Positions 1-43,772 of a stretch of DNA of 43,772 nucleotides are shown one piece after another. Under the pieces are notes generated by a model. That model saw only the letters and a list, made by a program, of their open reading frames with translations, ran no database searches and was not told the origin of the DNA. The position numbers were made by a program, and so were the translations under genes. Position 1 is the stretch's first letter. The number at the start of each line of letters is the position of its first letter. Source of the DNA: an uncultured bacterium (lineage in GTDB: Bacteria > Cyanobacteriota > Cyanobacteriia > Cyanobacteriales > Cyanobacteriaceae); the NCBI GenBank assembly GCA_964634505.1, contig CAZWLZ010000001.1, forward strand, positions 1 through 43,772, given 5' to 3'.

Positions 1-52
1 CAATGATGCTACCAACGGCAATACCGTTAAAAATTAGTTGGGGTATTTCCAT
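1..52 (-). CDS. 5' fragment (17 codons) of an ABC-transporter permease-like gene (LivH / branched-chain amino-acid type), truncated by the window edge
   Basis: The minus strand from ATG (complement of 50-52) reads MEIPQLIFNGIAVGSII. The motif NG(I/L)xxGSI is typical of LivH-family N-termini. It is too short for a firm call. Confidence 0.3.
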   Translation of the reverse strand, partial: MEIPQLIFNGIAVGSII

Positions 53-374
53 AGTCTCTATTAATTAAACTAGAGTATTTTAACTTATCATGTTAAATTT
101 TGTAAAAAAAAAAATTTTTATTTTTATCTTTTTTCCTTGATGGCGATCGCCAAATTTTTAAGCAAAATAAGTAGGTAAAAGTTATTAAAATAAAGTGTTT
201 AAGTCAAACGAAGAGAGATGAAATAAATAGTAAATTTAGAAAATCAAGAAAAAATAAGAAAAAATATTGATCTAAATTTGAAAATCATTAGTACAATAGA
301 AAAAAGATTTAATTAATCATAAATATAATTTGTTTTATTATCTATCAAGTAACTGGAGAAACTGACGAAAGCCT

Positions 375-992
375 GTGACATATAGCAATAACAATAACAA
401 CACAAATAACAATAGTAGTAATAACATTAACAATAACAATAATATAAGTATTCCGAGCAAAAAAAATTCTGCTCGTCGAGAAATTCCTAAAATTAATAAT
501 AATATTCCTTATGCTGAACTTCGAGTTATTGATCCAGATGGGGAACAGTTAGGTATTATTACTCATAAAGAGGCGTTAAAAATTGCTCAGGAAAAGCAGT
601 TAGATTTGGTGTTAGTCAGTGAAACATCTAGTCCGCCCGTATGTAGAATAATGGATTACGGGAAGTTTAAATTTGAACAGGAAAAGAAAGCAAAAATACT
701 GCGCAAAAAACAACATACTGTCCAAGTTAAAGAAGTTAAAATGCGCTACAAAATTGACGAACATGATTACCAAGTAAGAGTTAGTCAAGCAAAACGATTT
801 TTGCAATCGGGGGATAAAGTTAAGGCAACGGTTAACTTTAGGGGAAGAGAAATTCAACATTCTCATTTGGCTAAAGAATTGTTGGATAGAATGGCACTAG
901 ATTTAAAAGAAATGGCTGAAATTCAACAAATTCCCAAAAAAGAAGGGCGTAATATGATTATGTTTCTTTCTCCCAAAAAATTAGTTAATTAG
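375..992 (+). CDS. infC: Translation initiation factor IF-3
   Basis: Strong IF-3 signature: [71 protein letters not shown]. The track start is GTG at 375 and adds an Asn-rich N-terminal extension. An ATT at 450 is an alternative start (see findings). Confidence 0.93.
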
Positions 993-1023
993 CAAATAAT
1001 TAAAATATTACCATATTATCATA

Positions 1024-1038
1024 GGGGTTTTAAACCCC
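1024..1038. terminator. Probable bidirectional intrinsic terminator hairpin between convergent infC and the rubrerythrin gene
   Basis: GGGGTTT-T-AAACCCC stem-loop in the 62-nt gap between the two stop codons. It is flanked by T-rich sequence (TTATTTGTG) on the plus strand and by A/T-rich sequence on the other side. Confidence 0.5.
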
Positions 1039-1054
1039 TTATTTGTGCTATCAA

Positions 1055-1765
1055 TTACTTGGCGATCGCCTCTTCATAAGGAACAAAAAGTTTTTTCTGT
1101 GCCCCACAAATAGGACAATACCAATCATCGGGAATCTCTTCAAAAGCAGTACCAGCAGGGATTCCACTGTCAATATCTCCTACTACAGGATCATAAATCA
1201 TGGAACATTGACGACAAATCCATTTGCGAGTAAGAGGATTATCATCAACAATTTTTGGTATGGCTTCTTTACCGTCTAAAATATTAAGGGCTTCTGTATA
1301 TTGATTGGCGTGATGATTTTCAATGCTAGTTAAAAAAGCAAAGTTTTGTGCTGCTTTACGAAAAATAGCGGCGTGTTGTTTTGATTCGGTTTCTTGGGCT
1401 TCAAATTCTGCTTGTGCTGATTCATCCCGATCCATTTTTGCTTGACTGGCAAATTCAGGATACATAGTAGTATATTCATAAGTTTCCCCTTCGATCGCCA
1501 ATTCTAAACAACGAGTGGCAATTTGTTTTTTTTGTTCATCTGTTAATTGACTTGTATCCACAACTAATTCAGGATGAATAAGGCGAAAATGGGCGAAAGC
1601 GTGTTCTGTTTCTTGATTAGCGGTTTCTTTAAATAATTTTGATAACTCCTTAAAACCAAGTTCTTTAGTAAGTTCAGCAAAAAATAAATATTTACGATTA
1701 GCCATCGATTCTCCCCCAAAAGCTGCTTCTAAGTTTTTGGCGGTGTTAGCGTTTGATAAATCCAT
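1055..1765 (-). CDS. Rubrerythrin-family diiron protein with a C-terminal rubredoxin domain
   Basis: The N-terminal ferritin-like four-helix region has E..EH-type motifs (NQETEHAFAHF, EGETYEY, ESKQHAAIF). The C-terminal rubredoxin reads WICRQC...DDWYCPICGAQK, i.e. two CxxC pairs. Confidence 0.88.
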   Translation of the reverse strand: MDLSNANTAKNLEAAFGGESMANRKYLFFAELTKELGFKELSKLFKETANQETEHAFAHFRLIHPELVVDTSQLTDEQKKQIATRCLELAIEGETYEYTTMYPEFASQAKMDRDESAQAEFEAQETESKQHAAIFRKAAQNFAFLTSIENHHANQYTEALNILDGKEAIPKIVDDNPLTRKWICRQCSMIYDPVVGDIDSGIPAGTAFEEIPDDWYCPICGAQKKLFVPYEEAIAK

Positions 1766-1857
1766 TTTATCTCCTTTGGTTGTGACTTGATATTCAAGAA
1801 TAATTGTTGTTTTCTAAAATGTCAACAAGACAAATATTTGCTCAATTAATTTAACTC

Positions 1858-2643
1858 TTATTTAACCATTAATTGTCTTTGACGTTCATATAAAAGTAGA
1901 GAATTGGCGATCGCCACGTTAAGAGATTCCACCTCATTAAGAAGAGGAATAGTAACTTTTTGATCAGCAATTTGATTTAAAGAAGAAGATAAACCCTTAC
2001 TTTCATTACCGAATAAAATTAAACTAGGAAGGGTAAAATCTAATTGCCAATAAGTTTTAGTGGCGGTAGGTAAAGTAGCAATAATTTGCATTCCTTGATT
2101 TTGATAAAATTTAACCACTGTCAGCAAATCATCAGAATTGATCATATTAATTTTAAACCATTCTCCAGCAGAAGCCCTCATAACTTTAGGATGATCAAAA
2201 TCAACACTATCATTACTAAGCCATAAACAATCAACATTAGTAGCCACTGCCGTGCGAATTATTGTACCTAAATTGCCGGGGTCTTGAATTGATTCTAAAA
2301 TTAAACCTAATTTGATAGACTCGGGCATTTTTTTTCGCCAATTATCCCGAGAAGCTATAGCTAAAACACCGTCTGGGTTAACAGTAGTAGCAATAAATTT
2401 AAGAATTTCTGGGGCTACAGTTTCTACTTTTAAAGCCAGTCTTGTTAAACTTTGCCATAAATTATTATTTTCTTGTTGCCATTGAGAAGTAGTAATTAAA
2501 GTTTTTAAAGGATAATTAATTTGACTGACTACTTCTAAGGAATTTTTACCTTCAATCAAAAATAAATTTTGTTTGTGTCTTTCTTTAGCATTATGTAATT
2601 TTCTAATTTCCTTAATCAAAGGATTTTTAATACTTGTTAACAT
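1858..2643 (-). CDS. TrmH/SpoU-family RNA 2'-O-ribose methyltransferase
   Basis: SPOUT motifs are present: LESIQDPGNLGTIIRTA, LILFGNESKGLS, IPLLNEVESLNVAIANSLLLYE. Length is 261 aa, typical of group 3 TrmH/RlmB-like enzymes. Confidence 0.85.
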   Translation of the reverse strand: MLTSIKNPLIKEIRKLHNAKERHKQNLFLIEGKNSLEVVSQINYPLKTLITTSQWQQENNNLWQSLTRLALKVETVAPEILKFIATTVNPDGVLAIASRDNWRKKMPESIKLGLILESIQDPGNLGTIIRTAVATNVDCLWLSNDSVDFDHPKVMRASAGEWFKINMINSDDLLTVVKFYQNQGMQIIATLPTATKTYWQLDFTLPSLILFGNESKGLSSSLNQIADQKVTIPLLNEVESLNVAIANSLLLYERQRQLMVK

Positions 2644-2880
2644 TTATTTATTTGACATTACTTTCTTTTATTGAGACAAAACCTTCGATTTTAGGAGATC
2701 GCCATTTCAGATTTGAAAGGTGATGCAGAATTAACCAGTTTTTGTCCTTTTAAATTAGTTTGAAAAATACTTGCTTTTCAGAAGCCTAACAGCTAACTTA
2801 AACTTAAGTAGTGATATTATAGGATGTTTTACCATGTATTTGTTTCTGGTAATTACAGCGGATAACCCTTAAATTAGCAC

Positions 2881-3531
2881 CTAGCGAAAAGTAAATTTCT
2901 CAAACCATGAACCAGTCATTTCTGGTAGCGGAAGTTCCCCATTAAGAGGTGAAAGGCAAATGATATAGCCCACTGAAGTTAGTTTACCCTCATTATCGTA
3001 GTCATCTAAGTCTGATTCGAGCTTTTCTTGATACCTTTCATATTCTTCATCATCAAGGGTTTCCATAAAAGTTGGACTTGATGAGTAAGCATAGATATTA
3101 ACCTCATAAAAATCGGGTGGTACATCTATTACTTGAAAAATCATAAAATTCTCTCTAGGCGGTTTTCCCGAAATTGCATGAGACAAATCTTCAGCGACAC
3201 AGCTACACAGTAAGATTAATTTCCCACAGGGAATATTGAGTTTCCAAGTAAGTCGGGCGCACCAGTCGTTCTGTTCTTGATTTGTTAAATCCCCAATTAC
3301 AAAAAGTGTTTTGCGATCTAAGACACAATAACCATTGAAAAGTATCGGCATACAAATCCCCTGATCTAATAAGGGAGCAATATCTTGGGCTGAACCGTTT
3401 AAAACAATGTCAGAAATTTGACTAGGAGTTAAAGCACTACCCCCCAAACTAGCGGAGGTAAGTACATATCCATCACCATCACAAAAGAAATAGGGAGATA
3501 TAGGAATGCGTAAATTAATTTGGTTTTTCAC
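2881..3531 (-). CDS. Hypothetical protein (216 aa) with an acidic C-terminal segment; co-oriented downstream partner of the zinc-ribbon nuclease gene
   Basis: Long ORF with a GTG start (complement of 3529-3531), 92 nt downstream of the 593-aa gene on the same strand. GC is higher than in flanking genes. I recognise no family. The acidic stretch reads LDDEEYERYQEKLESDLDDYDNEG. Confidence 0.6.
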   Translation of the reverse strand: MKNQINLRIPISPYFFCDGDGYVLTSASLGGSALTPSQISDIVLNGSAQDIAPLLDQGICMPILFNGYCVLDRKTLFVIGDLTNQEQNDWCARLTWKLNIPCGKLILLCSCVAEDLSHAISGKPPRENFMIFQVIDVPPDFYEVNIYAYSSSPTFMETLDDEEYERYQEKLESDLDDYDNEGKLTSVGYIICLSPLNGELPLPEMTGSWFEKFTFR

Positions 3532-3623
3532 GACTTATTAGAAAATTTCAAGTAAAAATAGCAATAAATGGGAATGTTAAGTTTTATACCTCAATTGAAA
3601 TATATTGGCTACTGGCGATCTTG

Positions 3624-5405
3624 TTAATCAGTCGGATACAAATGGCGGATAGGTGGCGTTTGTTTAGATGCTTTTCGTCGACTGAGTGATCTATTTTTCT
3701 TAGCACAGATAGGACACCACGTACCAAAAAGCACATTACTAGGTCTAGCATTCCATTGGTGGCTTTCTTGGCACTCCCAGAGAAGAGGGGTGATACTATT
3801 AACGTACTTTGTTGATAAACACTTCCCACCACGGGCAACTGCTACAGCGTGCATATCTTGGATATTTCTACCTCTGCCAAGACATTTTGGACACCAACTA
3901 CCGCTATTCTTTACGTTATTTGGTGCAGCTCTAAACCGATGACCCTTGGCACATTCCCATTCTAAGTGTTCAAATATCCCCAAGTATTTCTCAGAAATTA
4001 GTTTTCCATCACGCTCGAGTGCAATAGCCTGCAATTCTCCTAATTTATTAGGAGAGTAAACTGAGCTTAAGCTGACCTCTTTATTTTCAAAGTTAGAAGG
4101 TAGCGGAATACCATTTTTTAACAATTCCTCACTAATAAAAAATTTAACATTTTCAATGCCAAGTATTTCTAAAATGGATGGAACTTCTATAAGAGTTATT
4201 CCATTATTTCTGCATAAATCACGCTTTTTTTGATCATTTTCTTGAATCTTCTTTAACTTAGTTTTTGAAGAATCAAAGAATTTAATGCTTCTGTAATGTT
4301 GCGTTCCCTGATGCTCAAACGCAATCTTTAAAGTTTGAGAATAACCATCTAGTTCCATTTGATAACCATCAGAATTACGAAGCCAATTTGGTCTAGCCTT
4401 TTTGAAAGGATGCTCCAAAAGCTGTTCAAAAAATTCTCGACAGATACGTTCTCCTAATCCAGCACTGCAAGTAGTACACCAGCCTCCTCTAAAAATAACT
4501 GATGGAATTGTTTCCCAGCGATGTCCCTCCTGACATTCCCACAAAAGTTTCTTATTAACTCTTTCATAAACGGTTGACAAGCATTTTCCCCCACGTTCTA
4601 ATGCAATTCTTTGCATATCTTCGATGGTCTTTAATTGGTTTCCTGCACAAGTAGGACACCATTTCCCCCCATTGATAATGTTGTCAGCATTAGCCATCCA
4701 TTGATGACCTTCAGCACACTTCCATAAGAGATGGTCTTTAACATTAACAAATTTGACAGATAGGCATACACCACCCTTACTAACAGCAAATGTTTGCATT
4801 TCCTCTATCGTGTGCGTTTTTCGTTTTTCTGCACGAATTTTCAGAGCACATTTGGGACACCATCTTCCATTCTTGACATGATGTGCATCAGCTTCCCAAA
4901 TATGCCCCTGTGAACATTGCCAAGTTAATTTCTTGATGACACTTTCAAATTGAGATGATAGACACATACCTCCAAATGAACTTGCTAAGTCTTGCATATC
5001 TTTGACAGTATGCTTTCTCCGATTTTTGTCGCTTTTGGCTCGTCCACACACTGGACACCACCTGCCCAAAGTTTGAATATTCTGTGGAATAGCCTCCCAC
5101 TGATGTCCTTCTGCACATTTCCAAATGTGTTTGGTTTTCATGCCTAGAAAATTTTCAGATAAGCATTCTCCACCAAATTTACTTGCTAAGTCCCGTAAAT
5201 CCTGAATAGTTCTTCCCTTCCCAGCACAGAATGGACACCAGTTACCAGCCTTAAGATAATCTCGGCAAGATTCAAACTGATGTCCATGCTTGCACTTAAA
5301 AAGTAGCTTATTGGTACAATTTACATATTCATTAGAAAGACAGCAACCACCACGTTTTCTGGCTATTTCATGCAACTCTTCAAGCAACTGTTGTTTATCT
5401 CTCAT
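3624..5405 (-). CDS. Multi-repeat zinc-ribbon protein (5 N-terminal + 2 C-terminal repeats) with an embedded PD-(D/E)xK (Vsr/DUF559-like) nuclease core
   Basis: Seven ~60-66 aa modules fit GGxCLSxxY-x6-LxWxCxxGHxW-x13-WCPxC. The central segment reads ...YQMELDGYSQTLKIAFEHQGTQHY...LCRNNGITLIEVP, giving D353-x10-E364-x-Q366. The DNA-level motif GGACACCA (complement encodes WCP) recurs at 3712, 3889, 4654, 4855, 5053 and 5233. Confidence 0.7.
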   Translation of the reverse strand: MRDKQQLLEELHEIARKRGGCCLSNEYVNCTNKLLFKCKHGHQFESCRDYLKAGNWCPFCAGKGRTIQDLRDLASKFGGECLSENFLGMKTKHIWKCAEGHQWEAIPQNIQTLGRWCPVCGRAKSDKNRRKHTVKDMQDLASSFGGMCLSSQFESVIKKLTWQCSQGHIWEADAHHVKNGRWCPKCALKIRAEKRKTHTIEEMQTFAVSKGGVCLSVKFVNVKDHLLWKCAEGHQWMANADNIINGGKWCPTCAGNQLKTIEDMQRIALERGGKCLSTVYERVNKKLLWECQEGHRWETIPSVIFRGGWCTTCSAGLGERICREFFEQLLEHPFKKARPNWLRNSDGYQMELDGYSQTLKIAFEHQGTQHYRSIKFFDSSKTKLKKIQENDQKKRDLCRNNGITLIEVPSILEILGIENVKFFISEELLKNGIPLPSNFENKEVSLSSVYSPNKLGELQAIALERDGKLISEKYLGIFEHLEWECAKGHRFRAAPNNVKNSGSWCPKCLGRGRNIQDMHAVAVARGGKCLSTKYVNSITPLLWECQESHQWNARPSNVLFGTWCPICAKKNRSLSRRKASKQTPPIRHLYPTD

Positions 5406-5776: not shown

Positions 5777-6004
5777 ATGTTTAAAAAACCTAGTTTCGAT
5801 TCTTCTAAAATTATGTATCGTAGCGATGAATTATTAGATGCCGCTTCTAATCGCTATCGCATCACTGTACAAGTTGCTAAACGTGCCAAACAAAGACGCT
5901 TTGAGGATTATGATAATTTAGATGAAGTGATGAAACCAGTTTTACGGGCGATCGTTGAAATGGCTGACGAATTAACAGAAAATGATATTATTAGCGACTC
6001 ATGA
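5777..6004 (+). CDS. rpoZ: DNA-directed RNA polymerase subunit omega
   Basis: AASNRYRITVQVAKRAKQRR...MKPVLRAIVEMADEL is the cyanobacterial RpoZ signature. I prefer ATG at 5777 (75 aa, matching typical cyanobacterial RpoZ length and N-terminus) over the track's TTG at 5756. Confidence 0.9.
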   Translation: MFKKPSFDSSKIMYRSDELLDAASNRYRITVQVAKRAKQRRFEDYDNLDEVMKPVLRAIVEMADELTENDIISDS

Positions 6005-6627
6005 AGAAATCTAGCTTTATTTTTCACCATAAATTATGGAAAAATACTTTAGAGTTATTTTTAGCTTCCCTCATTGGCTTTATTTTGCCTTTTTGGGTAG
6101 CCAATATTACTCCTAAACAACCAGATTTTGCGAATAATAGTTTTTTAAAACCTGTTTTTGCCCAAAGTCTGACTCCTGAAATCGTGGCTAAACAAGTTTA
6201 TGAAAAAATACCCGATTTTCCTAAAGAAAATCAATATCTTCGTCAAGATTCTAAGGCAGTTGATTTAGATAATACTTTAATTAGTAGAATTGTTCGTTAT
6301 CATCAGTATGTTAAAGCTCGTCCGACTGCTTTTCGTCTTGATTGGAAGTTGACTTTGGCTGATTATTTGAATGCTAATGAAGTTATTTTACCTAATCGTT
6401 ATCCGGGTGTTAGCACTTTAACAGAAAACCCCCTAATTTTAGACCAAAAGGCGATCGATAATTTAACTATATCTCAACGAGATCAATTAGTTGCTATTTT
6501 AGTTAGTATTTATAATCCAAGTATTGATCAAAATTCTAATTCTACTCCCACTCCCACTATAAAACCGACTACTCCTTCTCCTCCTCCTTTACCATCGCCA
6601 AAAGGGGCAGAATTACTTTTACCTTAA
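6001..6627 (+). CDS. Hypothetical signal-anchored protein with a Pro/Thr-rich C-terminal tail
   Basis: N-terminal hydrophobic helix LELFLASLIGFILPFWVANI. C-terminal tail NSTPTPTIKPTTPSPPPLPSP. Its ATG overlaps the rpoZ stop (ATGA at 6001-6004). No family recognised. Confidence 0.6.
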   Translation: MKKSSFIFHHKLWKNTLELFLASLIGFILPFWVANITPKQPDFANNSFLKPVFAQSLTPEIVAKQVYEKIPDFPKENQYLRQDSKAVDLDNTLISRIVRYHQYVKARPTAFRLDWKLTLADYLNANEVILPNRYPGVSTLTENPLILDQKAIDNLTISQRDQLVAILVSIYNPSIDQNSNSTPTPTIKPTTPSPPPLPSPKGAELLLP

Positions 6628-6647
6628 TTGATTAATTTTATTTATGC

Positions 6648-7298
6648 TTATTTTTTTGATTTTAAGTAAGCAAAAACTGATTTATCACCAATATCAGAGG
6701 GGATTGCTTGGGTAAATTTACGAAGGGCAAAAACAATAAATAATAATGCCCAACTAGCTAATAAAATTTTTTCGATTAATAAGGGTAAAAACCCTAATAA
6801 GTGTCCTAATAATAAGAATGGAACAAGTATGGTTAAAATTTTTGTTTCTAAACGATTAAAACAAATTCCTTCTTTAAAATAAATGCCTGTTAAGGCTGCA
6901 AAAATAAAGCCTATTCCTAACAGATTTAAAGGATTTTCATATATAAATAAAACTAATGATTGATCACTTTTTAGGTTGATAATTATGGCTGAAATTGTAC
7001 CAATTAACCAAAATATTTTTAATAAATTATGTAAAAATGCTAAGTAAATATGGATAGTAGATAGGCTTATTATTAAACTCAGGGCAAAAATTGCAAAAAG
7101 TGGCGTTAAAGTATCTAAAACGTTCTCATTTGCCCCTTTCCATAAGATTAAAACAGTCCCCATAGCAAAGCTAAAACTAGCTAAAAATAAACTTAAACGA
7201 TAAATAATGACTTCTTGGCGATCGCCATCATTAATCGTAAAATTACCGTATTCACCTTTATAAACAATAGTGTCAGATTCTAATGATTGAATATTCAT
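6648..7298 (-). CDS. Multi-pass integral membrane protein (possibly the cyanobacterial DUF2301 family; unverified)
   Basis: 216 aa with about 6 hydrophobic segments, e.g. LSLFLASFSFAMGTVLILW, LFAIFALSLIISLSTIHIYLAF, ILTILVPFLLLGHLLGFLPLL. The family assignment is from memory only. Confidence 0.6.
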   Translation of the reverse strand: MNIQSLESDTIVYKGEYGNFTINDGDRQEVIIYRLSLFLASFSFAMGTVLILWKGANENVLDTLTPLFAIFALSLIISLSTIHIYLAFLHNLLKIFWLIGTISAIIINLKSDQSLVLFIYENPLNLLGIGFIFAALTGIYFKEGICFNRLETKILTILVPFLLLGHLLGFLPLLIEKILLASWALLFIVFALRKFTQAIPSDIGDKSVFAYLKSKK

Positions 7299-7334
7299 AT
7301 AAAATAATAAAAAATTTAAAATTTGTAATTATAA

Positions 7335-8003
7335 CTATAATTCCCAATTTATAGGAGATTGAGAAGATTTTTGTAAGGCTAAATTAATTTGAGAAAAAGG
7401 TTTACTACCAAAAAAACCTTTATTTGCAGAAAAAGGGGAAGGATGGGGGGATTTAATTATAAAATGTTTTGCGGTATTAATTAACTCAATTTTTCTTTGA
7501 GCAAATTGCCCCCAAAGTACGAATATAATAGGATTAGAATTGCGATTAAGTAAGCTAATTACAGCATTTGTAAACATTTCCCAACCTTTATCTTTATGAG
7601 AATTGGCTTCATGGATTCTTACCGTTAAAACTGTATTAAGCATCAAAATTCCTTGTTTTGCCCAATTCGATAAATCCCCGTGAGTTGGTATAGGTAATTT
7701 TTGATCTTGATTTAACTCTTTGAAAATGTTATCTAAAGAAGGAGGTATTTTTGCTCCTTTTTTCACCGAAAAACTTAAACCATGAGCTTGATTAACATTA
7801 TGATAAGGGTCTTGTCCTAAAATTACAACCTTTACTTCTGGGAAGGGAGTTAATTGAAAAGCAGTAAACACTTCCTCTTCAGAAGGAAATATTTGATATT
7901 TCTTTCTTTCTTGATTAATAAATTTTTGTAACAAAATAAAATAAGGTTGTTCGATTTCTGATTTTAAGTAAGGTAACCAAGTTTCTAATTGATTTATATT
8001 CAT
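7335..8003 (-). CDS. ung: Uracil-DNA glycosylase, family 1
   Basis: Canonical motifs VVILGQDPYH (water-activating loop), GILMLNTVLTV and HPSPFSA (intercalation-loop HPSPLS variant). Length 222 aa. Confidence 0.93.
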   Translation of the reverse strand: MNINQLETWLPYLKSEIEQPYFILLQKFINQERKKYQIFPSEEEVFTAFQLTPFPEVKVVILGQDPYHNVNQAHGLSFSVKKGAKIPPSLDNIFKELNQDQKLPIPTHGDLSNWAKQGILMLNTVLTVRIHEANSHKDKGWEMFTNAVISLLNRNSNPIIFVLWGQFAQRKIELINTAKHFIIKSPHPSPFSANKGFFGSKPFSQINLALQKSSQSPINWEL

Positions 8004-8253
8004 TAAAAAGTAAGTTTAAGTGAAAAAAATTTTTTATAGCTATAGTCTAAAGTGTTTAATTATTATAGGTTGGGTTAAAGCATTAAACCCAACAAAAACC
8101 GAGACAAAACAAAATAATCAAAATAACTTTTTATCCTAATCATACTATAGCAATAGACAAATTAATTAAAACAAATATCATATTCAATTTTTTATCAACT
8201 TATGAAAATTTTTCACCAAAAAATTAGTATTTTCAATTATTAAAATAAAATCT

Positions 8254-9858
8254 ATGTTTGAATCAGAAAAATTACTTTTTACTCCTGTTAAATCGGAAGA
8301 AAATAGTATTAAAATAGTTTTCGCTTTTCCTAATACTTATAGTGTCGGAATTACTAGCCTAGGTTATCAAATTATATGGGCAAATTTAGCCCAAAGAAAA
8401 GATGTAGAAGTTGCTCGTCTTTTTACTGATATTTATGAAAATTTACCTAAAAATCCAGATTTAATTGGGTTTTCTTTTTCTTGGGAATTAGACTATATAA
8501 ATATCTTAAATTTATTAGATTTTTTACAGATTCCTTTTAATACTAAAGACCGAGAAAATTATCACCCTTTAGTATTCGGAGGAGGCCCTGTTTTGACTGC
8601 TAATCCTGAACCTTTTGCTAATTTTTTTGATGTCATTTTATTGGGTGATGGTGAAAATTTACTTGATAGTTTTATTAATAATTATCAACAAGTAAAACAA
8701 GAAAATCGTGAAATAAAATTACTTCATCTTGCTACAATTTCTGGCATTTATATACCTAGTTTATATGAGGTTAATTATCATGATTTAGAGAGTGAAATTA
8801 AATCAATTTTACCTATTAACAAAAATGTTCCGATTGAAGTAGAAAAACAAACTTATCGAGGTAATATTTTGTCTGCTTCTACCGTTGTTACAGACAAGGC
8901 AGCCTGGGAAAATATTTATATGGTAGAAGTGGTTAGAAGTTGCCCTGAAATGTGCCGTTTTTGTTTGGCAAGTTATCTTACTTTACCTTTTCGTAGTGCT
9001 AATTTAGAAACTTCTTTAATACCTGCTATTGAGAAGGGTTTAAAAGTAACAAATAGGCTAGGATTATTGGGTGCTTCTGTTACTCAACATCCAGAATTTG
9101 AGTCTTTATTAGATTACTTAAATCAAGAAAAATATGCTGATTTACGATTAAGTATTGCTTCTGTGCGCACTAATACTGTCACGGAAAAATTGGCTACCAT
9201 TTTAACGAAAAGAAACACCAAATCTATTACTATTGCTGTCGAAAGTGGTTCAGAAATTTTAAGAAATGTTATTAATAAAAAGTTGAAAAATGAGGAGATT
9301 ATAACTGCGGTTATTAATGCTAAAAATGGCGGTTTAAAAAGTATTAAATTTTATGGCATGGTTGGTATTCCTACTGAAAATGACGCTGATTTAGAGGCAA
9401 CTATTCTGATGTTAGAAACTCTTAAAAAAGTTGCCCCTTCATTACGTTTTACCTTCGGTTGTAGTACATTTGTCCCTAAAGCTCATACCCCTTTTCAATG
9501 GTTTGGAGTTAATAAAGAATCTCAGAGGCGACTTAAATTTTTTCAAAAACAATTAGGCAAAAAAGGGGTAGATTTTCGTCCCGAAAGTTATAATTGGTCA
9601 GTTATACAGGCTTTAATATCTCGTGGCGATCGCCGAATAAGTAAAATATTAGAATTAACAAGAAATTATGGAGATACTTTAGGTAGTTTTAGAAGAGCAT
9701 TTAAAGAATTAAAAGGACAATTACCAGATTTAGATTACTATGTGTATAGTCATTGGAAAACGAGTCAAATTTTACCTTGGGAACATTTAAAAACAGTGTT
9801 AAATAAAGAGACTTTAATTAAACATTTATTTGAAGCAATTCCAGATCACAAATTATAA
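8254..9858 (+). CDS. Radical SAM protein with an N-terminal B12-binding-like domain (uncharacterised cyanobacterial family)
   Basis: CxxxCxxC cluster motif SCPEMCRFCLASY. N-terminal Rossmann-like region (IVFAFPNTY...VILLGDGE). Length 534 aa. Confidence 0.85.
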   Translation: MFESEKLLFTPVKSEENSIKIVFAFPNTYSVGITSLGYQIIWANLAQRKDVEVARLFTDIYENLPKNPDLIGFSFSWELDYINILNLLDFLQIPFNTKDRENYHPLVFGGGPVLTANPEPFANFFDVILLGDGENLLDSFINNYQQVKQENREIKLLHLATISGIYIPSLYEVNYHDLESEIKSILPINKNVPIEVEKQTYRGNILSASTVVTDKAAWENIYMVEVVRSCPEMCRFCLASYLTLPFRSANLETSLIPAIEKGLKVTNRLGLLGASVTQHPEFESLLDYLNQEKYADLRLSIASVRTNTVTEKLATILTKRNTKSITIAVESGSEILRNVINKKLKNEEIITAVINAKNGGLKSIKFYGMVGIPTENDADLEATILMLETLKKVAPSLRFTFGCSTFVPKAHTPFQWFGVNKESQRRLKFFQKQLGKKGVDFRPESYNWSVIQALISRGDRRISKILELTRNYGDTLGSFRRAFKELKGQLPDLDYYVYSHWKTSQILPWEHLKTVLNKETLIKHLFEAIPDHKL

Positions 9859-9899
9859 TTTATTATTAATTTTTAAACCAATAAATAACCAAAAATAAG

Positions 9900-10571
9900 A
9901 TGATTAAAAATAAAATAAAAGACTTAATTCCTAGTTATATTTTAAAAGGAATTAAAGAGGCAAAATGGGAAAAATTGCAACAAAAAAAATTAGCAAAAGG
10001 CAGAAAACAAGCTGAGATTTTACTTGCTAAAAATGAACCAATAAAAATAGATTTAGGTTCGGGAAATAGAAGAGGAGAAAATGGCTGGACAACTGTTGAT
10101 ATATGTGATATATGCGATCTGTATTGGAACATTTTTTTACCGTTACCACTACCAGATAATAGCGTTAGTCAAATTTATTCTTCTCATGTTTTAGAACATT
10201 TTTATTATCAAGATAGTTTGAAAATAGTTAAAGAATGTTATCGCCTTTTAAAACCGCAAGGAATCTTAAAAATTTGTGTACCTAATGCCAAAATATATAT
10301 TAATAGTTATTATGAACAAAAAACGGATCAATTAGGAATAGAAGAAAATACAAAAAATACAATTTATTTTGATAAAACTGATACTGATATTGACTACTTA
10401 AATTATATGGCATATATGGGCGGTGAACATAAATATATGTTTGATGAAAATAACCTTTTAGCTATGTTGAAAAAAGCTGGTTTTTCTGAAGTTCAACCAT
10501 CAATATTTGATCCAGAAATTGATCATAAATATAGGCAAAAAGAGTCTATTTATGCGATCGCCATTAAGTAA
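9900..10571 (+). CDS. Class I SAM-dependent methyltransferase
   Basis: Motif I IDLGSG, then YSSHVLEHF and LLKPQGILKICVPN, typical of Methyltransf_11/23-type enzymes. It lies 41 nt downstream of the radical SAM gene. Confidence 0.75.
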   Translation: MIKNKIKDLIPSYILKGIKEAKWEKLQQKKLAKGRKQAEILLAKNEPIKIDLGSGNRRGENGWTTVDICDICDLYWNIFLPLPLPDNSVSQIYSSHVLEHFYYQDSLKIVKECYRLLKPQGILKICVPNAKIYINSYYEQKTDQLGIEENTKNTIYFDKTDTDIDYLNYMAYMGGEHKYMFDENNLLAMLKKAGFSEVQPSIFDPEIDHKYRQKESIYAIAIK

Positions 10572-10699
10572 ACATTAGGATAAATTCTTATTCTGCTAAA
10601 AATTAACCTATAATGATACATCTAAATCACAATTGTATAGACAAAAATCAATAATAAAAAGTTAATAAATTTAAATTATACTATATCAAAATAAAAATT

Positions 10700-12355
10700 A
10701 TGAGTAATCCATTTCGTGAACTTCAACAAGTATTTAACTCTTTTGGAAAACAATTCACTACGGAAATTAGTGCAGAAATTCAAAAATCTTTACAAGAATG
10801 GTTAAACACTCATGAATCTAAAGTCATTGAACGAAAAAAACTTAAACCCTCTAATGGTACGATGATGCAATGGTTTCATTGGTATTTACCCCCTGATGGC
10901 ACTCATTGGCAAAATTTGACAAAAGAAGCTAAAAATCTTGCTGAAGCGGGTATTACTGCCCTTTGGTTACCTCCAGCTTGTAAAGGCGGAAGCGGTGGTT
11001 ATGATGTAGGTTACGGAGTTTATGATTTATTTGATCTAGGAGAATTTGATCAAAAAGGCTCTATTCGGACGAAATACGGTACTAAAAATGAGTATGTAGC
11101 TGCTATTAAAAGCTGCAAAGAGAGAGAAATTGATATTTATGCTGATGTGGTTTTTAACCATAAAATGGCTGCTGATTATGAAGAAGAATTTGACGCCATT
11201 CCCTTTGATAATCAAAATCGCAATCATGCTTTAGGAGAATCTCGTAAAATTAAATCTTGGACAGGTTTCGATTTTAAGGGAAGAGGCGACAAGTATTCTA
11301 GCATGAAATGGCATTCTTGGCATTTTGATGCCGTTGATTTTAATAGTTATGAGCCGGATTTTAAAGCAGTGTGGCGGAGAAGTGAAAAAATCTTTGATAC
11401 TAAAGTTGATCTTGAAAAAGGCAATTATGATTATTTAATGGGTTGTGATTTGGATATTGATCATCCAGAAGTGCGAGGAGAATTAAAGTATTGGGGTGAA
11501 TGGATGTTAGATGAATTTGGGATAGATGGTTTTCGATTTGATGCGATTAAACACATTAATGGTGATTTTTTTCCCGATTGGATTGACCATTTAGAAGATC
11601 ATGTCAAAAGCCATATTTTTTGTGTAGGGGAGTATTGGAGTTATGATTTGAGTGCCTTAAGTTGGTATATTGGTAATGCTGGAGGGCAAGTTAATTTATT
11701 TGATGCACCTTTACATTATAATTTCCATCAAGCAAGTAAAGCTGGTAATAGTTATGATATGCGTTCAATTTTAGATGGTACATTAATGAAGCATTTACCT
11801 TTATTTGCCGTCACTTTAGTTGATAATCACGATACCCAACCTCTACAATCATTAGAATCTTTGGTGGAATCTTGGTTTAAACCTTTAGCTTATGCAATTA
11901 TTTTATTACGAGCTGAGGGTTATCCTTGTATTTTTTATGCTGATTATTATGGTGCTCATTATATTGATAAAGGGAAGGATGGTAATGAGTACGAGATTTG
12001 GATGGATTCTCATCAAGAAATTATCGATCGCCTTTTAGTTGCCCGTCAATATTTTGCCTATGGATTACAATACGATTATTTTGATCATTCTAATACGATA
12101 GGATGGACTCGTCTTGGCAATAAAGATTATCCCAACGCCATGGCTGTTATTCTTACTAATGGTGATGGTGGCACGAAATGGATGGAGGTAGGTAAAGCTA
12201 ACACTCTATTTTATGATATTACTGGTAATATTAATGAACCGATTAAAACCAATCAAGATGGTTGGGCAGAATTTCGCTGTAATGGAGGTTCGGTTTCGGT
12301 TTGGCTTGAAAAAGATGAAAATTTACCCGCTTTAGCTAAATTTTTACAATTTTAA
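10700..12355 (+). CDS. amyA: Alpha-amylase, GH13 (E. coli AmyA / Bacillus Termamyl-like), apparently cytoplasmic
   Basis: NGTMMQWFHWY, YDLFDLGEFDQKGSIRTKYGTK, DVVFNHK, GIDGFRFDAIKHI, CVGEYW and LVDNHDTQP are the GH13 conserved regions with the catalytic D/E/D. There is no signal peptide, and there is a ~50-aa N-terminal extension. Confidence 0.9.
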   Translation: MSNPFRELQQVFNSFGKQFTTEISAEIQKSLQEWLNTHESKVIERKKLKPSNGTMMQWFHWYLPPDGTHWQNLTKEAKNLAEAGITALWLPPACKGGSGGYDVGYGVYDLFDLGEFDQKGSIRTKYGTKNEYVAAIKSCKEREIDIYADVVFNHKMAADYEEEFDAIPFDNQNRNHALGESRKIKSWTGFDFKGRGDKYSSMKWHSWHFDAVDFNSYEPDFKAVWRRSEKIFDTKVDLEKGNYDYLMGCDLDIDHPEVRGELKYWGEWMLDEFGIDGFRFDAIKHINGDFFPDWIDHLEDHVKSHIFCVGEYWSYDLSALSWYIGNAGGQVNLFDAPLHYNFHQASKAGNSYDMRSILDGTLMKHLPLFAVTLVDNHDTQPLQSLESLVESWFKPLAYAIILLRAEGYPCIFYADYYGAHYIDKGKDGNEYEIWMDSHQEIIDRLLVARQYFAYGLQYDYFDHSNTIGWTRLGNKDYPNAMAVILTNGDGGTKWMEVGKANTLFYDITGNINEPIKTNQDGWAEFRCNGGSVSVWLEKDENLPALAKFLQF

Positions 12356-12399
12356 TCTTATGCCCCCTTTTTTAGAAGGTTAGGGGGATAAAATTCAAA

Positions 12400-13284
12400 T
12401 TAAAATCCAAAAACTATTCCTATTAATAAAACAAATCCTAAAAAAACATTTTGCTTAAAAATTTCTCCATAAACAGAAGTTTCTAGTTCCTTTTCTCTTA
12501 AACAAATATATTGAATCATCCAGCCTAAAGTGGCGATCGCCCATGAAATGCCAAAAATAAGGTTTAAGTGCATTACCATGCCTAAATAAGCAAATAACCC
12601 CGTAGTCAGAGCAAAAAATAACCCTATAGCATCAGCCGTATAATCCCCAAAGAAAATAGCACTAGAATTGATCCCTATTTTTAAATCATCTTCCCTATCA
12701 GCCATAGCGTAAACCGTATCAAACCCTAAAGTCCAAGTAACAGTGGCTGCCCATAAAACCCAAGTATTAAAATTAAGACTACCCGTCAAGGCACTCCAAC
12801 TAATTAACACGGCAAAACCCCAAGCCAAAGATAAAATTAATTGAGGAATAGGGAAAACCCTTTTTGCTAAGGGATAACAGACGATTACAGGCACAGAAGC
12901 CACACAAAGCCAAAAAGTTAAAGTATTAAGATAAAAAGCTAATTCAGCCGCACAAAGTAAGGCAATAAAAACTACTACTAAGCCTACTTTCACTGATAAA
13001 TCACGAGAAGCTAGAGGACGATTTTTTGTTCTTTCTACTTTTCGATCGATGTCTCTATCCCATAAATCATTGATAACACAACCAGCCCCACTGGTTGCTA
13101 AACTACCAATTACAATTATTCCAATTAAAAGTAAAGGCGGTTTTCCTTCTCCTGCTAAAAATAAAGCCCATAAAGCTGGAATCATTAAAATTAAGCGGCC
13201 AGCCGGTTTATCCCATCGCAATAATCGGATAATTTTACTAATAAGAGATTCTGATTCTGTATTTATTTTTAATGGACTAACCAT
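12400..13284 (-). CDS. ubiA: 4-hydroxybenzoate polyprenyl (solanesyl) transferase, UbiA family (plastoquinone branch in cyanobacteria)
   Basis: NDLWDRDIDRKVERTKNRPLASR (NDxxDxxxD motif), a second Asp-rich motif YAMADREDD, and about 8 TM helices. Confidence 0.88.
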   Translation of the reverse strand: MVSPLKINTESESLISKIIRLLRWDKPAGRLILMIPALWALFLAGEGKPPLLLIGIIVIGSLATSGAGCVINDLWDRDIDRKVERTKNRPLASRDLSVKVGLVVVFIALLCAAELAFYLNTLTFWLCVASVPVIVCYPLAKRVFPIPQLILSLAWGFAVLISWSALTGSLNFNTWVLWAATVTWTLGFDTVYAMADREDDLKIGINSSAIFFGDYTADAIGLFFALTTGLFAYLGMVMHLNLIFGISWAIATLGWMIQYICLREKELETSVYGEIFKQNVFLGFVLLIGIVFGF

Positions 13285-13333
13285 AAATTTATTATTGATG
13301 AATTAGTAAAAATGGAGAATAGATAAAAAGAAA

Positions 13334-13669
13334 TTAATTATCAATGATTTCCGTATCAACACTGGCGATCGCCTTTTCAAAATTCATTCTTTGTTCGGCA
13401 TTACGCAAAAAATAACCACTCATCATAGCAGAAGCAAGTAATTTTCCTAAATTTTCTCGATTAGTATTAATGACAACCCCAAAATTTTCTGGGGGTAAAT
13501 GTCCTAGTAAACCCGTGATATTTTTTTCCATCACTTGAAATACTTCTTGAGATTGAGGCTTAGATAATTGGGAAATCGTATCTGGACTTAAAGATTGAAG
13601 ATACTCTAAAAATAAATTATCATTGCCATTCCCTTCAAAAAAATTTGATTGATTCGATGATTGATTCAT
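13334..13669 (-). CDS. Small conserved hypothetical protein (possibly DUF760; unverified)
   Basis: 111-aa ORF with coding-like composition. LEYLQSLSPDTISQLSKP...VMEKNITGLLGHLP resembles the cyanobacterial/plastid DUF760 family, from memory. Confidence 0.5.
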   Translation of the reverse strand: MNQSSNQSNFFEGNGNDNLFLEYLQSLSPDTISQLSKPQSQEVFQVMEKNITGLLGHLPPENFGVVINTNRENLGKLLASAMMSGYFLRNAEQRMNFEKAIASVDTEIIDN

Positions 13670-13864
13670 GATTTTTCCTCCGTAATCAATTTTGATCTAA
13701 ATTCCAAAATTTAATTATTAACAGTTTGTTTTTAACTAATATAACCATATTAAAACAATTTTTCGGTAGTTAAAACCGAACTAAAAAGTAGCAAAAGGTG
13801 AATAGTCTCGAAAAAGTTAATAATTTAGATTGACGATAATTTAGCTATAAACTCATAGAATTTA

Positions 13865-14794
13865 TCATATTTGAGACCTTAACCAAGCGATAGGTAAATA
13901 AAGCATTTTATTTTTTGAGGGTACAAAAGCCCTTTTATTAAAAACATCATATTGATTTTTTTCAATAACATCAAGAATACCTTGATATAACATTAAAGCA
14001 GACCATACAGGCCAACGACAATCTGGATTTAGTGAACTAATGCCCTTCTCAGCCGATTGGTAATATTTTCTAGCCCGTTGAATTTGAAAATCCATTAATT
14101 TACACCATCTCTCATTAATTACACCGTTTAACAGTTCTTTTTCTGAGTAATTAAAAGATTTTAAATCTTCTAAAGGTAAATAAATTCGTCCTCTTTGGGC
14201 ATCTTCTCCCACGTCTCTTAAAATGTTCGTTAATTGATTTGCTAAACCTAAGGCGATCGCCTCTTCCTGTGAATTATAGACTAGATTATCTTGATCCCAA
14301 GGGGTTTTAACTAAATTCTGTTCAAAGCCCAACACCGCAGAGGACATCAATCCTACCGTGCCGGCTACTCGATAACAATAAAGTTTCAAATCATCAAAAG
14401 TTTCATAACGATTACGATATAAATCCATTCTCTGACCGGCAATCATATCTCTAAAAGGCTGAATATCCATAGGAAAGCGTTTTAAAGTATCAACTAAAGC
14501 CACATCAGGATCATCAATAGCTTGTCCATCAAAAACACATTCTAACTGTTTTTCCCATAAATCAAGGGTTTCAGGCGTAGTTAATCTAGCTTGAGCGCCA
14601 TCTACTAATTCATCAGTACGACGACACCAAACATAGATAGCCCAAATAGCAGTGCGTTTTTCTTTAGGCATTAACAAAGTACCCAAATAAAAAGTTTTAG
14701 AATACTTTGCTGTAATTTGACGACAGTATTCATAAGCCTCTTCTAAAGAGACTAACGGTTGTTTCGGTTGTAAGGTTTTAGGCAGTTGCAGCAT
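13865..14794 (-). CDS. crtB: Phytoene synthase
   Basis: YCRQITAKYSKTFYLGT, WCRRTDELVDG (first Asp-rich motif), YCYRVAGTVGLM, LRDVGEDAQRGRIYLP (second Asp-rich motif). Confidence 0.93.
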   Translation of the reverse strand: MLQLPKTLQPKQPLVSLEEAYEYCRQITAKYSKTFYLGTLLMPKEKRTAIWAIYVWCRRTDELVDGAQARLTTPETLDLWEKQLECVFDGQAIDDPDVALVDTLKRFPMDIQPFRDMIAGQRMDLYRNRYETFDDLKLYCYRVAGTVGLMSSAVLGFEQNLVKTPWDQDNLVYNSQEEAIALGLANQLTNILRDVGEDAQRGRIYLPLEDLKSFNYSEKELLNGVINERWCKLMDFQIQRARKYYQSAEKGISSLNPDCRWPVWSALMLYQGILDVIEKNQYDVFNKRAFVPSKNKMLYLPIAWLRSQI

Positions 14795-14956
14795 TCATCG
14801 CAGCAGAAATAGTTTTCTAGTTTAAAATAAAATTAACAATAATAGCAATTTTTTTATATTGTCTCATTTAATGGTTATTTTTTGTTAAGCAATAATTAAC
14901 TAAAATTACAGTTTGGATAACTATAACATTGATATTTTATTTTTAGGTGATTTTTT

Positions 14957-16330: not shown

Positions 16331-16510
16331 TTTTTTTACTAAAATTTATAATAAAATTTACATATATAAATATCTTGAGATAATTAATAATTTTGAAAAA
16401 TTGATAATAAGTAATCTCAAATTGATTAAAAAAAATAAAAGTAAGTATTAATTATAATATTATTTGATTAATTAAATAAGGACTATTAAAATATCAATTA
16501 CTTAAAATTA

Positions 16511-17281: not shown

Positions 17282-17368
17282 TATTATAAATAGATATTTC
17301 TTTAGTTTTTCAATATTCCTTTAATGTATTATGGCAATTGATGGTTAATTTAGCAACAAAATTGTTGT

Positions 17369-19415: not shown

Positions 19416-19446
19416 TTGATAAAAAAAGTTATTAGATATTAAGTAT

Positions 19447-21874: not shown

Positions 21875-21898
21875 ATTAATAATTTATAAATTATTAAT

Positions 21899-37125: not shown

Positions 37126-37145
37126 GCATAAATAAAATTAATCAA

Positions 37146-41915: not shown

Positions 41916-42007
41916 GAGTTAAATTAATTGAGCAAATATTTGTCTTGTTGACATTTTAGAAAACAACAATTATTCTTGAATATCAAGTCACAACCAAAGG
42001 AGATAAA

Positions 42008-42718
42008 ATGGATTTATCAAACGCTAACACCGCCAAAAACTTAGAAGCAGCTTTTGGGGGAGAATCGATGGCTAATCGTAAATATTTATTTTTTGCTGAA
42101 CTTACTAAAGAACTTGGTTTTAAGGAGTTATCAAAATTATTTAAAGAAACCGCTAATCAAGAAACAGAACACGCTTTCGCCCATTTTCGCCTTATTCATC
42201 CTGAATTAGTTGTGGATACAAGTCAATTAACAGATGAACAAAAAAAACAAATTGCCACTCGTTGTTTAGAATTGGCGATCGAAGGGGAAACTTATGAATA
42301 TACTACTATGTATCCTGAATTTGCCAGTCAAGCAAAAATGGATCGGGATGAATCAGCACAAGCAGAATTTGAAGCCCAAGAAACCGAATCAAAACAACAC
42401 GCCGCTATTTTTCGTAAAGCAGCACAAAACTTTGCTTTTTTAACTAGCATTGAAAATCATCACGCCAATCAATATACAGAAGCCCTTAATATTTTAGACG
42501 GTAAAGAAGCCATACCAAAAATTGTTGATGATAATCCTCTTACTCGCAAATGGATTTGTCGTCAATGTTCCATGATTTATGATCCTGTAGTAGGAGATAT
42601 TGACAGTGGAATCCCTGCTGGTACTGCTTTTGAAGAGATTCCCGATGATTGGTATTGTCCTATTTGTGGGGCACAGAAAAAACTTTTTGTTCCTTATGAA
42701 GAGGCGATCGCCAAGTAA
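42008..42718 (+). CDS. Rubrerythrin-rubredoxin fusion protein (mirror copy of 1055..1765)
   Basis: Exact mirror; identical 236-aa protein. Confidence 0.88.
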   Translation: MDLSNANTAKNLEAAFGGESMANRKYLFFAELTKELGFKELSKLFKETANQETEHAFAHFRLIHPELVVDTSQLTDEQKKQIATRCLELAIEGETYEYTTMYPEFASQAKMDRDESAQAEFEAQETESKQHAAIFRKAAQNFAFLTSIENHHANQYTEALNILDGKEAIPKIVDDNPLTRKWICRQCSMIYDPVVGDIDSGIPAGTAFEEIPDDWYCPICGAQKKLFVPYEEAIAK

Positions 42719-42734
42719 TTGATAGCACAAATAA

Positions 42735-42749
42735 GGGGTTTAAAACCCC
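42735..42749. terminator. Bidirectional terminator hairpin (mirror copy of 1024..1038)
   Basis: GGGGTTT-A-AAACCCC was read directly at 42735-42749. Confidence 0.5.
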
Positions 42750-42780
42750 TATGATAATATGGTAATATTTTAATTATTTG

Positions 42781-43398
42781 CTAATTAACTAATTTTTTGG
42801 GAGAAAGAAACATAATCATATTACGCCCTTCTTTTTTGGGAATTTGTTGAATTTCAGCCATTTCTTTTAAATCTAGTGCCATTCTATCCAACAATTCTTT
42901 AGCCAAATGAGAATGTTGAATTTCTCTTCCCCTAAAGTTAACCGTTGCCTTAACTTTATCCCCCGATTGCAAAAATCGTTTTGCTTGACTAACTCTTACT
43001 TGGTAATCATGTTCGTCAATTTTGTAGCGCATTTTAACTTCTTTAACTTGGACAGTATGTTGTTTTTTGCGCAGTATTTTTGCTTTCTTTTCCTGTTCAA
43101 ATTTAAACTTCCCGTAATCCATTATTCTACATACGGGCGGACTAGATGTTTCACTGACTAACACCAAATCTAACTGCTTTTCCTGAGCAATTTTTAACGC
43201 CTCTTTATGAGTAATAATACCTAACTGTTCCCCATCTGGATCAATAACTCGAAGTTCAGCATAAGGAATATTATTATTAATTTTAGGAATTTCTCGACGA
43301 GCAGAATTTTTTTTGCTCGGAATACTTATATTATTGTTATTGTTAATGTTATTACTACTATTGTTATTTGTGTTGTTATTGTTATTGCTATATGTCAC
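42781..43398 (-). CDS. infC: Translation initiation factor IF-3 (mirror copy of 375..992)
   Basis: Exact mirror; identical 205-aa protein. Confidence 0.93.
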
Positions 43399-43720
43399 AG
43401 GCTTTCGTCAGTTTCTCCAGTTACTTGATAGATAATAAAACAAATTATATTTATGATTAATTAAATCTTTTTTCTATTGTACTAATGATTTTCAAATTTA
43501 GATCAATATTTTTTCTTATTTTTTCTTGATTTTCTAAATTTACTATTTATTTCATCTCTCTTCGTTTGACTTAAACACTTTATTTTAATAACTTTTACCT
43601 ACTTATTTTGCTTAAAAATTTGGCGATCGCCATCAAGGAAAAAAGATAAAAATAAAAATTTTTTTTTTTACAAAATTTAACATGATAAGTTAAAATACTC
43701 TAGTTTAATTAATAGAGACT

Positions 43721-43772
43721 ATGGAAATACCCCAACTAATTTTTAACGGTATTGCCGTTGGTAGCATCATTG
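43721..43772 (+). CDS. 5' fragment of LivH-like ABC permease gene (mirror copy of 1..52)
   Basis: ATGGAAATACCCCAACTAATTTTTAACGGTATTGCCGTTGGTAGCATCATTG was read directly at the window end. Confidence 0.3.
   Translation, partial: MEIPQLIFNGIAVGSII

Follow-up and report, generated by a model that had tools for sequence, protein, structure and literature searches.

The 43,772-nt window analysed here, which is an entire NCBI contig on which the protein database also places the encoded proteins, reads as one perfect palindrome. From sequence comparisons we conclude that this palindrome is almost certainly technical and absent from the genome of the organism, the real sequence being a single arm of 21.9 kb (1-21894).

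The window was compared with its own reverse complement. Matches were found at 43,772 of the 43,772 positions, with 0 mismatches, which bears out the claim of the first-pass annotation that the whole sequence is a perfect palindrome without a spacer. The same symmetry confirmed that the axis falls between positions 21886 and 21887, as proposed, and that a unique loop is absent. The base counts are A = T = 14,877 and C = G = 7,009, and the surroundings of the axis are AT-rich. Each ORF has a twin on the opposite strand with paired coordinates totalling 43773, also as described before and as seen for the GH57 glycoside hydrolase gene. The palindrome extends to both contig termini, which fall on the same base, and there is neither a unique flank nor an outer duplication junction. 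When the window was examined as a possible natural large inverted repeat (plastid-type, rRNA-type or a chromosomal inverted duplication), a single-copy spacer and unique flanks were absent. In the protein database the GH57, DctP, sufD and amylase sequences were found on no contig other than that of the window, and there is thus no independent copy of the 'duplication'. The features are listed in Table 1.

Table 1. Features of the 43,772-nt window and their coordinates.
Feature	Position	Strand	Remarks
Arm read as genuine	1-21894	+	Single-copy segment from the chromosome of a cyanobacterium with low GC (32%)
Mirror read as artefactual	21895-43772	-	Reverse complement of 1-21878 without a mismatch; its genes are all read as spurious duplicates
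livH-like ABC permease (BPD_transp_2), first 17 codons	1-52	-	Cut by the contig end
Arm ORFs, part 1			infC, rubrerythrin, spoU-type methylase, ORF without Pfam match, DUF4379 zinc-finger protein, rpoZ
Arm ORFs, part 2			Second ORF without Pfam match, DUF2301 (window 6546), ung, radical-SAM protein, methyltransferase
Arm ORFs, part 3			GH13 amylase, ubiA, DUF760, crtB, sufD, sufC, LmeA-like, DctP, GH57
GH57 glycoside hydrolase	19643-21874	+	PF03065, E = 1e-77; last real gene ahead of the axis
GH57 twin pair	19643-21874 / 21899-24130	+ / -	Mirror ORFs
Native palindrome, ATAATTTA and TAAATTAT on either side of the axis	21879-21894	.	16 bp, perfect, spacer-less, axis-centred

The coding fraction of the arm is ~88%, comprising the 20 ORFs examined and the truncated permease gene, and the largest gap is no longer than 371 nt. 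Pfam searches with the 20 arm ORFs returned housekeeping, metabolic or DUF matches for 18 and none for the remaining two. These matches support the earlier assignment of infC, rpoZ, ung, sufCD, crtB and ubiA, and add to that list rubrerythrin, the SpoU methylase, the radical-SAM protein, the GH13 amylase, DctP and GH57. Each arm carries 12 copies of the HIP1 motif (GCGATCGC), where ~0.035 would be expected (0.07 across the whole window), and a repeat scan of the arm gave only HIP1-centred or low-complexity AT matches. The ORFs covering ~88% of the arm included neither replication or partition genes nor protelomerase or phage genes, and a tRNA scan found no tRNA. In its dense housekeeping content and its richness in HIP1 the arm is cyanobacterial DNA of chromosomal type.

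At the outer end, the minus-strand translation of positions 1-52, MEIPQLIFNGIAVGSII, matches a complete 285-aa BPD_transp_2 protein encoded by a relative (contig L086). L086 runs through the outer end of the window and extends 2.67 kb further, so that the 17 residues present in the window belong to a gene that is complete there; the window does truncate a permease gene, as had been stated. A Logan contig from the same strain (L089) likewise stops here, at window position 11. Both contig termini lie at codon 17 of the livH-like gene and represent one identical break. The outer contig end is an ordinary assembly break within a gene.

The axis is crossed by two independent contigs from relatives that are 96-97% identical, not from the identical strain. 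These are L084, a Logan contig from SRR21290153 with ~97% identity to the window, and L091, a 20.8 kb stretch of the 32.7 kb contig SRR30635589_23. Their GH57 orthologues share 96-97% nucleotide identity with that of the window. The identities of contigs L084-L090 to the window range from 95.5 to 99.97%. L084 follows the window as far as 21894, 8 nt past the axis, and departs from it at 21895, running on after GH57 into unrelated, non-coding sequence with no inverted copy. L091 is collinear with window positions 6546-21879 (DUF2301 to GH57) at 92-98% identity, and downstream of GH57 it encodes a Ser/Thr kinase, ilvC, recR, feoA and feoB; its sequence past GH57 had no match in the window. The synteny check downstream of GH57 proposed in the first-pass annotation therefore finds unique DNA, without an inverted copy, in both relatives. 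Since the mirror half is an exact reverse complement and L084 and L091 carry unique sequence in its place, the view that all apparent paralogues here are spurious is also supported. The tail of L084 reaches a GC-rich hairpin element, where the Logan contig ends and of which the window holds 0 copies, and this suggests a hard-to-assemble spot directly past the axis. Logan contigs from the same strain (SRR10912416 and SRR10912417; 99.9-99.97% identity) covered only 11-3965 and ~17-18.5 kb of the window, and none spanned the axis.

Further searches returned no useful relatives. An exact look-up of the GH57 protein of the window gave no record outside the window, and a look-up with rpoZ for the remainder of contig SRR30635589_23 gave no record. 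A literature search with five of the SRA run accessions gave 0 papers. Among GTDB species-representative genomes the closest GH57 relative was just 69% identical and uninformative on local synteny. The last 200 aa of GH57, used as a query for partial proteins on axis-crossing contigs, gave a best match of 58%. A degenerate DNA pattern for the GH57 C-terminus had 0 matches in JGI metagenomes and IMG/VR, indicating that the lineage is absent there. Contigs L081-L083, which carry GH57 relatives of 75% identity, have CinA and a response regulator upstream and ndhH or mscS downstream; their neighbours differ from those of the window on both sides, and at that distance they were uninformative and were dropped as a test of the axis.

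The position of the axis coincides with a short natural inverted repeat (8+8), which is native in L084. This 16-bp palindrome starts 4 nt past the stop codon of GH57. The palindrome half-length at the axis in L084 is 8, whereas none of 21,825 further centres along the arm goes beyond 6, and the chance of a random breakpoint landing on this longest palindrome is ~1 in 20,000. Fold-back at the longest palindrome of the arm is a signature of snap-back priming. L091 does not have the 16-bp palindrome, the intergenic sequence after GH57 differing between strains. No assembly k-mer in usual use is as short as 16 bp, so that one has to assume either that chimeric reads were present or that the native palindrome is longer in the strain of the window.

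Collectively, the continuation of L084 and L091, the native palindrome at the axis and the single ordinary break found at both ends support the earlier reading of the window as a folded 21.9 kb chromosomal fragment. The route that we propose would begin with a genome bearing a perfect 16-bp palindrome shortly downstream of GH57. A single-stranded 3' end at this palindrome may snap back in vitro and be extended by a polymerase, whether through phi29 in multiple displacement amplification (MDA), end-repair fill-in, a long-read fold-back or a missed adapter, and this would yield molecules or reads that pass from the arm directly into its own reverse complement. The assembler would then follow an 'inverted loop', in which the same graph edge is taken forward and then reverse-complemented, reaching one dead end twice. 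The contig resulting from such a traversal would be exactly symmetric, lack a spacer and have two identical ends. As the wet-lab or software step behind the junction, chimeric fold-back molecules, a long read that folds back and the assembler itself are all candidates. The arms show 0 differences in 21,886 nt, and for this reason we lean modestly towards a small number of fold-back reads having seeded a graph-based assembly (de Bruijn or string-graph), rather than towards one long fold-back read. The first-pass annotation named SMRTbell adapters, nanopore fold-back and MDA as causes, and the de Bruijn-graph 'inverted loop' should be added to that list.

Several known artefacts resemble the window. 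Chimeras of MDA and whole-genome amplification share with the window a junction between a sequence and its reverse complement (Lasken & Stockwell 2007, PMC1855051; Pacasus, PMC6218980). Inversions make up over 85% of MDA chimeras, and their priming takes 2-21 nt of complementarity (PMC1855051); in the window the junction falls on a 16-bp palindrome (8+8). An MDA inversion typically comes with an intervening deletion, whereas the junction in the window lies exactly at the centre of the palindrome with nothing lost. Exactly mirrored contigs were met and discarded in cyanobacterial single-cell assemblies (10.1101/2023.06.06.543983); those came from Yellowstone Synechococcus with a known MDA and single-cell workflow, and the window is from another organism. 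Chimeric reads driven by palindromes and inverted repeats arise in ordinary Illumina libraries (PMC10908179), and long reads show fold-backs as well (PMC12870357). In nanopore and PacBio fold-backs a strand runs into its own complement, so that, as in the window, the sequence is duplicated in inverted orientation around one point (PMC12870357; PMC13141652). Raw long-read fold-backs, however, carry errors, and their arms would seldom agree at all 21,886 positions unless symmetrically polished. The unitigs of de Bruijn inverted loops (self-mirror edges) are, like the window, exact, of even length and spacer-less, with both ends at one graph end (Rahman & Medvedev 2022, PMC9528984), and SPAdes and MEGAHIT output whole palindromic unitigs (PMC9528984). 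That work treats real genomic palindromes, whereas the 16 bp seen in L084 are too short for the usual k, and artefactual junction k-mers are therefore needed.

We also considered a purely computational fold-back without chimeric DNA, in which the contig ended a few bases past the 16-bp palindrome and was joined to itself during overlap, gap closing or merging, or, as a variant, the native palindrome of the strain is at least k-1 long. Taken together, these two forms are rather unlikely. They too make the palindrome an artefact and depart from the best explanation only in the step that failed. The terminal 16 nt (21879-21894) are self-complementary, the Logan contig L084 stops at a GC-rich hairpin in its tail, and according to graph theory a single palindromic (k+1)-mer is enough to fold a unitig (PMC9528984). 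Against these readings, a stretch of 16 nt falls short of the minimum k in common use (21 or more) and of most overlap thresholds, and the intergenic sequence is strain-variable, with L091 lacking the palindrome.

A real giant inverted duplication, either chromosomal or on an extrachromosomal amplicon, appears very improbable. It would have arisen by snap-back in vivo at the 16-bp palindrome after a double-strand break, and such an amplicon would have to be kept in a polyploid cyanobacterium despite SbcCD-type surveillance. Fold-back mediated by short inverted repeats is a route to large palindromes in vivo as well, the axis is placed on a natural palindrome, and an axis-crossing contig from the same strain was not recovered. 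Yet SbcCD cleaves long spacer-less palindromes and bacteria lose them, the structure is absent from relatives that are 96-97% identical, and there is zero divergence between the arms. In addition, the arms end at an identical base, where a chromosomal duplication would have an outer junction to unique DNA, and this end interrupts a gene at a break that the same-strain contig L089 and the relative L086 mark as ordinary.

A linear replicon with a covalently closed hairpin telomere of the N15, Borrelia or Agrobacterium type, or a replicated telomere junction, is effectively refuted by L091 and L084, which read through the axis (L091 into the kinase, ilvC and recR); although read-through of a hairpin end yields a perfect spacer-less palindrome and the axis is AT-rich, the ORFs covering ~88% of the arm include no protelomerase, replication, partition or phage gene, their content is core chromosomal, and the other end, where assembly broke off within a gene, is no second telomere. 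Phage N15, Borrelia, the linear chromosome of Agrobacterium and snap-back amplification at short inverted repeats share with the window only the geometry of a perfect inverted repeat with a short AT-rich centre. Compared to such real large palindromes and hairpin replicons, the window has no telomere resolvase or replicon genes and holds core chromosomal content, its axis is read through in relatives and its outer ends are an assembly break.

If the palindrome is technical, as we conclude, its biological significance is essentially nil and it matters for data hygiene. The half of the public contig that we read as fictitious (21895-43772), together with its 'duplicate' genes, should be discarded, and all of the 'paralogue' pairs would be spurious, including infC, rpoZ, ung, sufCD, crtB, ubiA and GH57. 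The duplicated markers would raise estimates of contamination or duplication for the genome bin, and the perfect terminal inverted repeats may mislead tools that read them as the ends of complete linear or viral genomes. An instructive detail is that the fold-back coincides precisely with the longest natural palindrome in the segment, suggesting that a site of 16 bp can give rise to a misassembly of 44 kb. Screening for contigs that are identical to their own reverse complement is a trivial and worthwhile check.

Comparison of the window with its own reverse complement gave 0 mismatches over 43,772 nt (A = T = 14,877; C = G = 7,009), bearing out the spacer-less perfect palindrome described in the first-pass annotation. 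The two halves meet at the axis, 21886|21887, without any unique loop between them. As had also been noticed, the ORFs are paired as mirror images with coordinates summing to 43773, for example the GH57 gene at 19643-21874 (+) and 21899-24130 (-). In the protein database the window's proteins are assigned to one NCBI contig, 43,772 nt long, and the window is therefore the entire deposited contig, not an excerpt. Close variants of these proteins were traced by cluster look-ups to Logan contigs of several SRA runs, two of which cross the axis. L084 (SRR21290153_25450; 3,227 nt, ~97% identical), holding the DctP 3' end and GH57, matches the window through 21894, 8 nt past the axis, and then continues with ATTACGCCGAAGAAAAAGTATTAGG..., which is unrelated to the mirror arm. 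L091, the 20.8 kb fetched from the 32,677-nt contig SRR30635589_23 (92-98% identity), is collinear with window 6546-21879 (DUF2301, ung, radical SAM, methyltransferase, amylase, ubiA, DUF760, crtB, sufD, sufC, LmeA, DctP and GH57). It carries genes for a Ser/Thr protein kinase, ilvC (KARI), recR, feoA and feoB 3' of GH57, and its 5.5 kb downstream of GH57 had no match in the window. In both of the closest genomes available, this examination of synteny downstream of GH57, proposed in the first-pass annotation, therefore places unique DNA, not an inverted copy, 3' of GH57. The GH13 alpha-amylase gene is ~92% identical to L091, compared to 96-98% for the flanking genes, and the adjacent intergenic stretches are unalignable; this local divergence peak relative to the L091 strain could reflect recombination or relaxed constraint.

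Around the position of the axis, L084 natively carries a 16-bp palindrome that is perfect and spacer-less, ATAATTTA|TAAATTAT; it starts 4 nt past the GH57 stop codon, and its centre coincides exactly with the window's axis. At the other 21,825 possible centres in the arm, the maximum half-length of a perfect palindrome is 6. The fold-back thus coincides with the segment's longest natural palindrome, where a random breakpoint would fall with a chance of roughly 1 in 20,000. Such a location is what would be expected if a 3' end folded back at a self-complementary site and was then extended with its own strand as template. L091 lacks the 16-bp palindrome, and the intergenic sequence 3' of GH57 is strain-variable. 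A GC-rich hairpin element, GTAGGTTGGGTTGA(G/C)G(C/A)AA(C/G)GAAACCCAAC, was observed at L084:3199-3227, ~65 nt past the GH57 stop codon, and the L084 contig terminates inside it. The same element lies ~10 nt past the GH57 stop in two distant genomes, a Cyanobacteriota MAG and Sphaerospermopsis NIES-73 (L023:12240-12272 and L037:12217-12249). The window has no copy of this element, which may represent either a repeat dispersed among cyanobacteria or a conserved hairpin resembling a terminator.

At the outer end, the 17 N-terminal residues of a livH-like permease, MEIPQLIFNGIAVGSII, are encoded on the - strand by bases 1-52, confirming the earlier reading that a permease gene is cut here. The gene is complete (285 aa, BPD_transp_2) in a relative's contig, L086 (SRR21290172, 95.5% identical), which extends 2.67 kb further, into another gene. 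The same-strain contig L089 (SRR10912417), 99.97% identical to window 11-3965, ends within 10 nt of the same place. The outer end is thus an ordinary assembly break, and because of the symmetry both contig ends are one and the same break.

The arm represents an ordinary single-copy stretch of a cyanobacterial chromosome, as the first-pass annotation had inferred from its housekeeping genes. Its coding share is ~88%, with the largest gap no longer than 371 nt, and its GC content is 32%. For the cyanobacterial HIP1 octamer GCGATCGC, most often found in its longer version TGGCGATCGCC, the window has 24 sites, 12 in each arm, where 0.07 would be expected, a ~340-fold excess; within the arm the sites span 143-21028. 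A tRNA scan of the window found none, and no gene in the arm resembled replication, partition, telomere-resolvase, phage or transposon genes. Read from its first in-frame start, GTG, the infC ORF has a ~39-residue N-terminal extension of mostly Asn and some Ser, consistent with a strongly AT-biased genome; the protein is 207 aa in related strains (P0122) compared to 205 aa here, suggesting length polymorphism of the Asn tract. In the 593-aa DUF4379 protein a treble-clef zinc-finger module, CxxC...WxCxxC, is repeated many times, with three stretches scored as DUF4379, and a non-repeat middle region of ~120 aa interrupts the repeats.

Genes of one arm, with window coordinates where available
Feature	Coordinates	Strand	Basis
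infC	375-992	+	Pfam
Rubrerythrin-rubredoxin fusion			Pfam
SpoU-type methyltransferase			Pfam
ORF, 216 aa	2881-3531	-	no Pfam family
DUF4379 treble-clef zinc-finger repeat protein	3624-5405	-	Pfam
rpoZ			Pfam
ORF, 208 aa, C-terminus proline-rich and low-complexity	6001-6627	+	no Pfam family
DUF2301			Pfam
ung			Pfam
B12-type radical-SAM protein			Pfam
Methyltransferase			Pfam
GH13 alpha-amylase	10573-12396		Pfam
ubiA			Pfam
DUF760			Pfam
crtB			Pfam
sufD			Pfam
sufC			Pfam
LmeA-like protein			Pfam
DctP solute-binding protein			Pfam
GH57 glycoside hydrolase	19643-21874	+	Pfam

The proposed origin is in vitro: molecules or reads would have been made in which the arm runs into its own reverse complement, and the assembler would then have followed them. 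Each link of this route is backed by the literature. More than 85% of MDA chimeras are inversions, and in more than 70% priming occurs at 2-21 complementary nt (PMC1855051); in ordinary Illumina libraries, sonicated or enzymatic, inverted repeats and palindromes also give rise to chimeric reads (PMC10908179); and fold-back reads are known from Nanopore and PacBio (PMC12870357). A self-mirror edge in a de Bruijn graph gives a palindromic unitig that SPAdes and MEGAHIT emit whole (PMC9528984), and exactly mirrored contigs have been seen in, and thrown out of, cyanobacterial single-cell assemblies (10.1101/2023.06.06.543983). The absence of any difference between the 21,886-nt arms and the identical ends suggest that a single graph edge was traversed twice in a deterministic way, rather than that a raw, noisy long read was deposited, and we lean modestly towards this graph route. 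In a minor variant, the self-complementary 16-nt end would have allowed a purely computational self-join.

A real palindromic amplicon formed in vivo could have used the same snap-back site, and no same-strain contig across the axis was found by GH57 protein look-up or by a search with the GH57 C-terminal part. Such an amplicon is nevertheless very improbable, being absent from the relatives and showing zero arm divergence. An inverted duplication truly embedded in a chromosome would adjoin unique DNA at one outer end or both; no such junction is present, and long spacer-less palindromes are unstable in bacteria. A linear replicon with hairpin telomeres, contradicted by the gene content, the read-through of the axis in L084 and L091 and the mid-gene outer end, has a negligible probability.

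Six SRA runs (SRR10912416, SRR10912417, SRR21290153, SRR21290172, SRR24791615 and SRR30635589; loci L084-L094) contain the species in their Logan assemblies, at 95-100% identity. Outside the species, GH57 identity reaches 75% at most, and ~68-69% for the closest named matches, from a Xenococcaceae MAG and Cyanobacterium stanieri. The species was absent from GTDB representative genomes at the GH57 locus searched (best GH57 69%), scans of JGI metagenomes and IMG/VR found no copy of the locus, and a search for publications naming five of the six run accessions gave no match. This poorly sampled low-GC cyanobacterial lineage appears to be under-described. Cluster look-ups placed the exact GH57, DctP, sufD and amylase proteins on no other contig; the assembly therefore represents the region by this contig alone, which is no by-product copy of a chromosome contig.

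Collectively, the perfect symmetry, the identical ends, the native palindrome at the axis and the read-through in relatives, all directly observed, support the artefact interpretation of the first-pass annotation: the palindrome almost certainly does not belong to the genome. Genuine sequence is confined to 1-21894; the remainder, 21895-43772, should be removed and every duplicate gene disregarded. The contig illustrates clearly how a palindrome of 16 bp can seed a misassembly of 44 kb.
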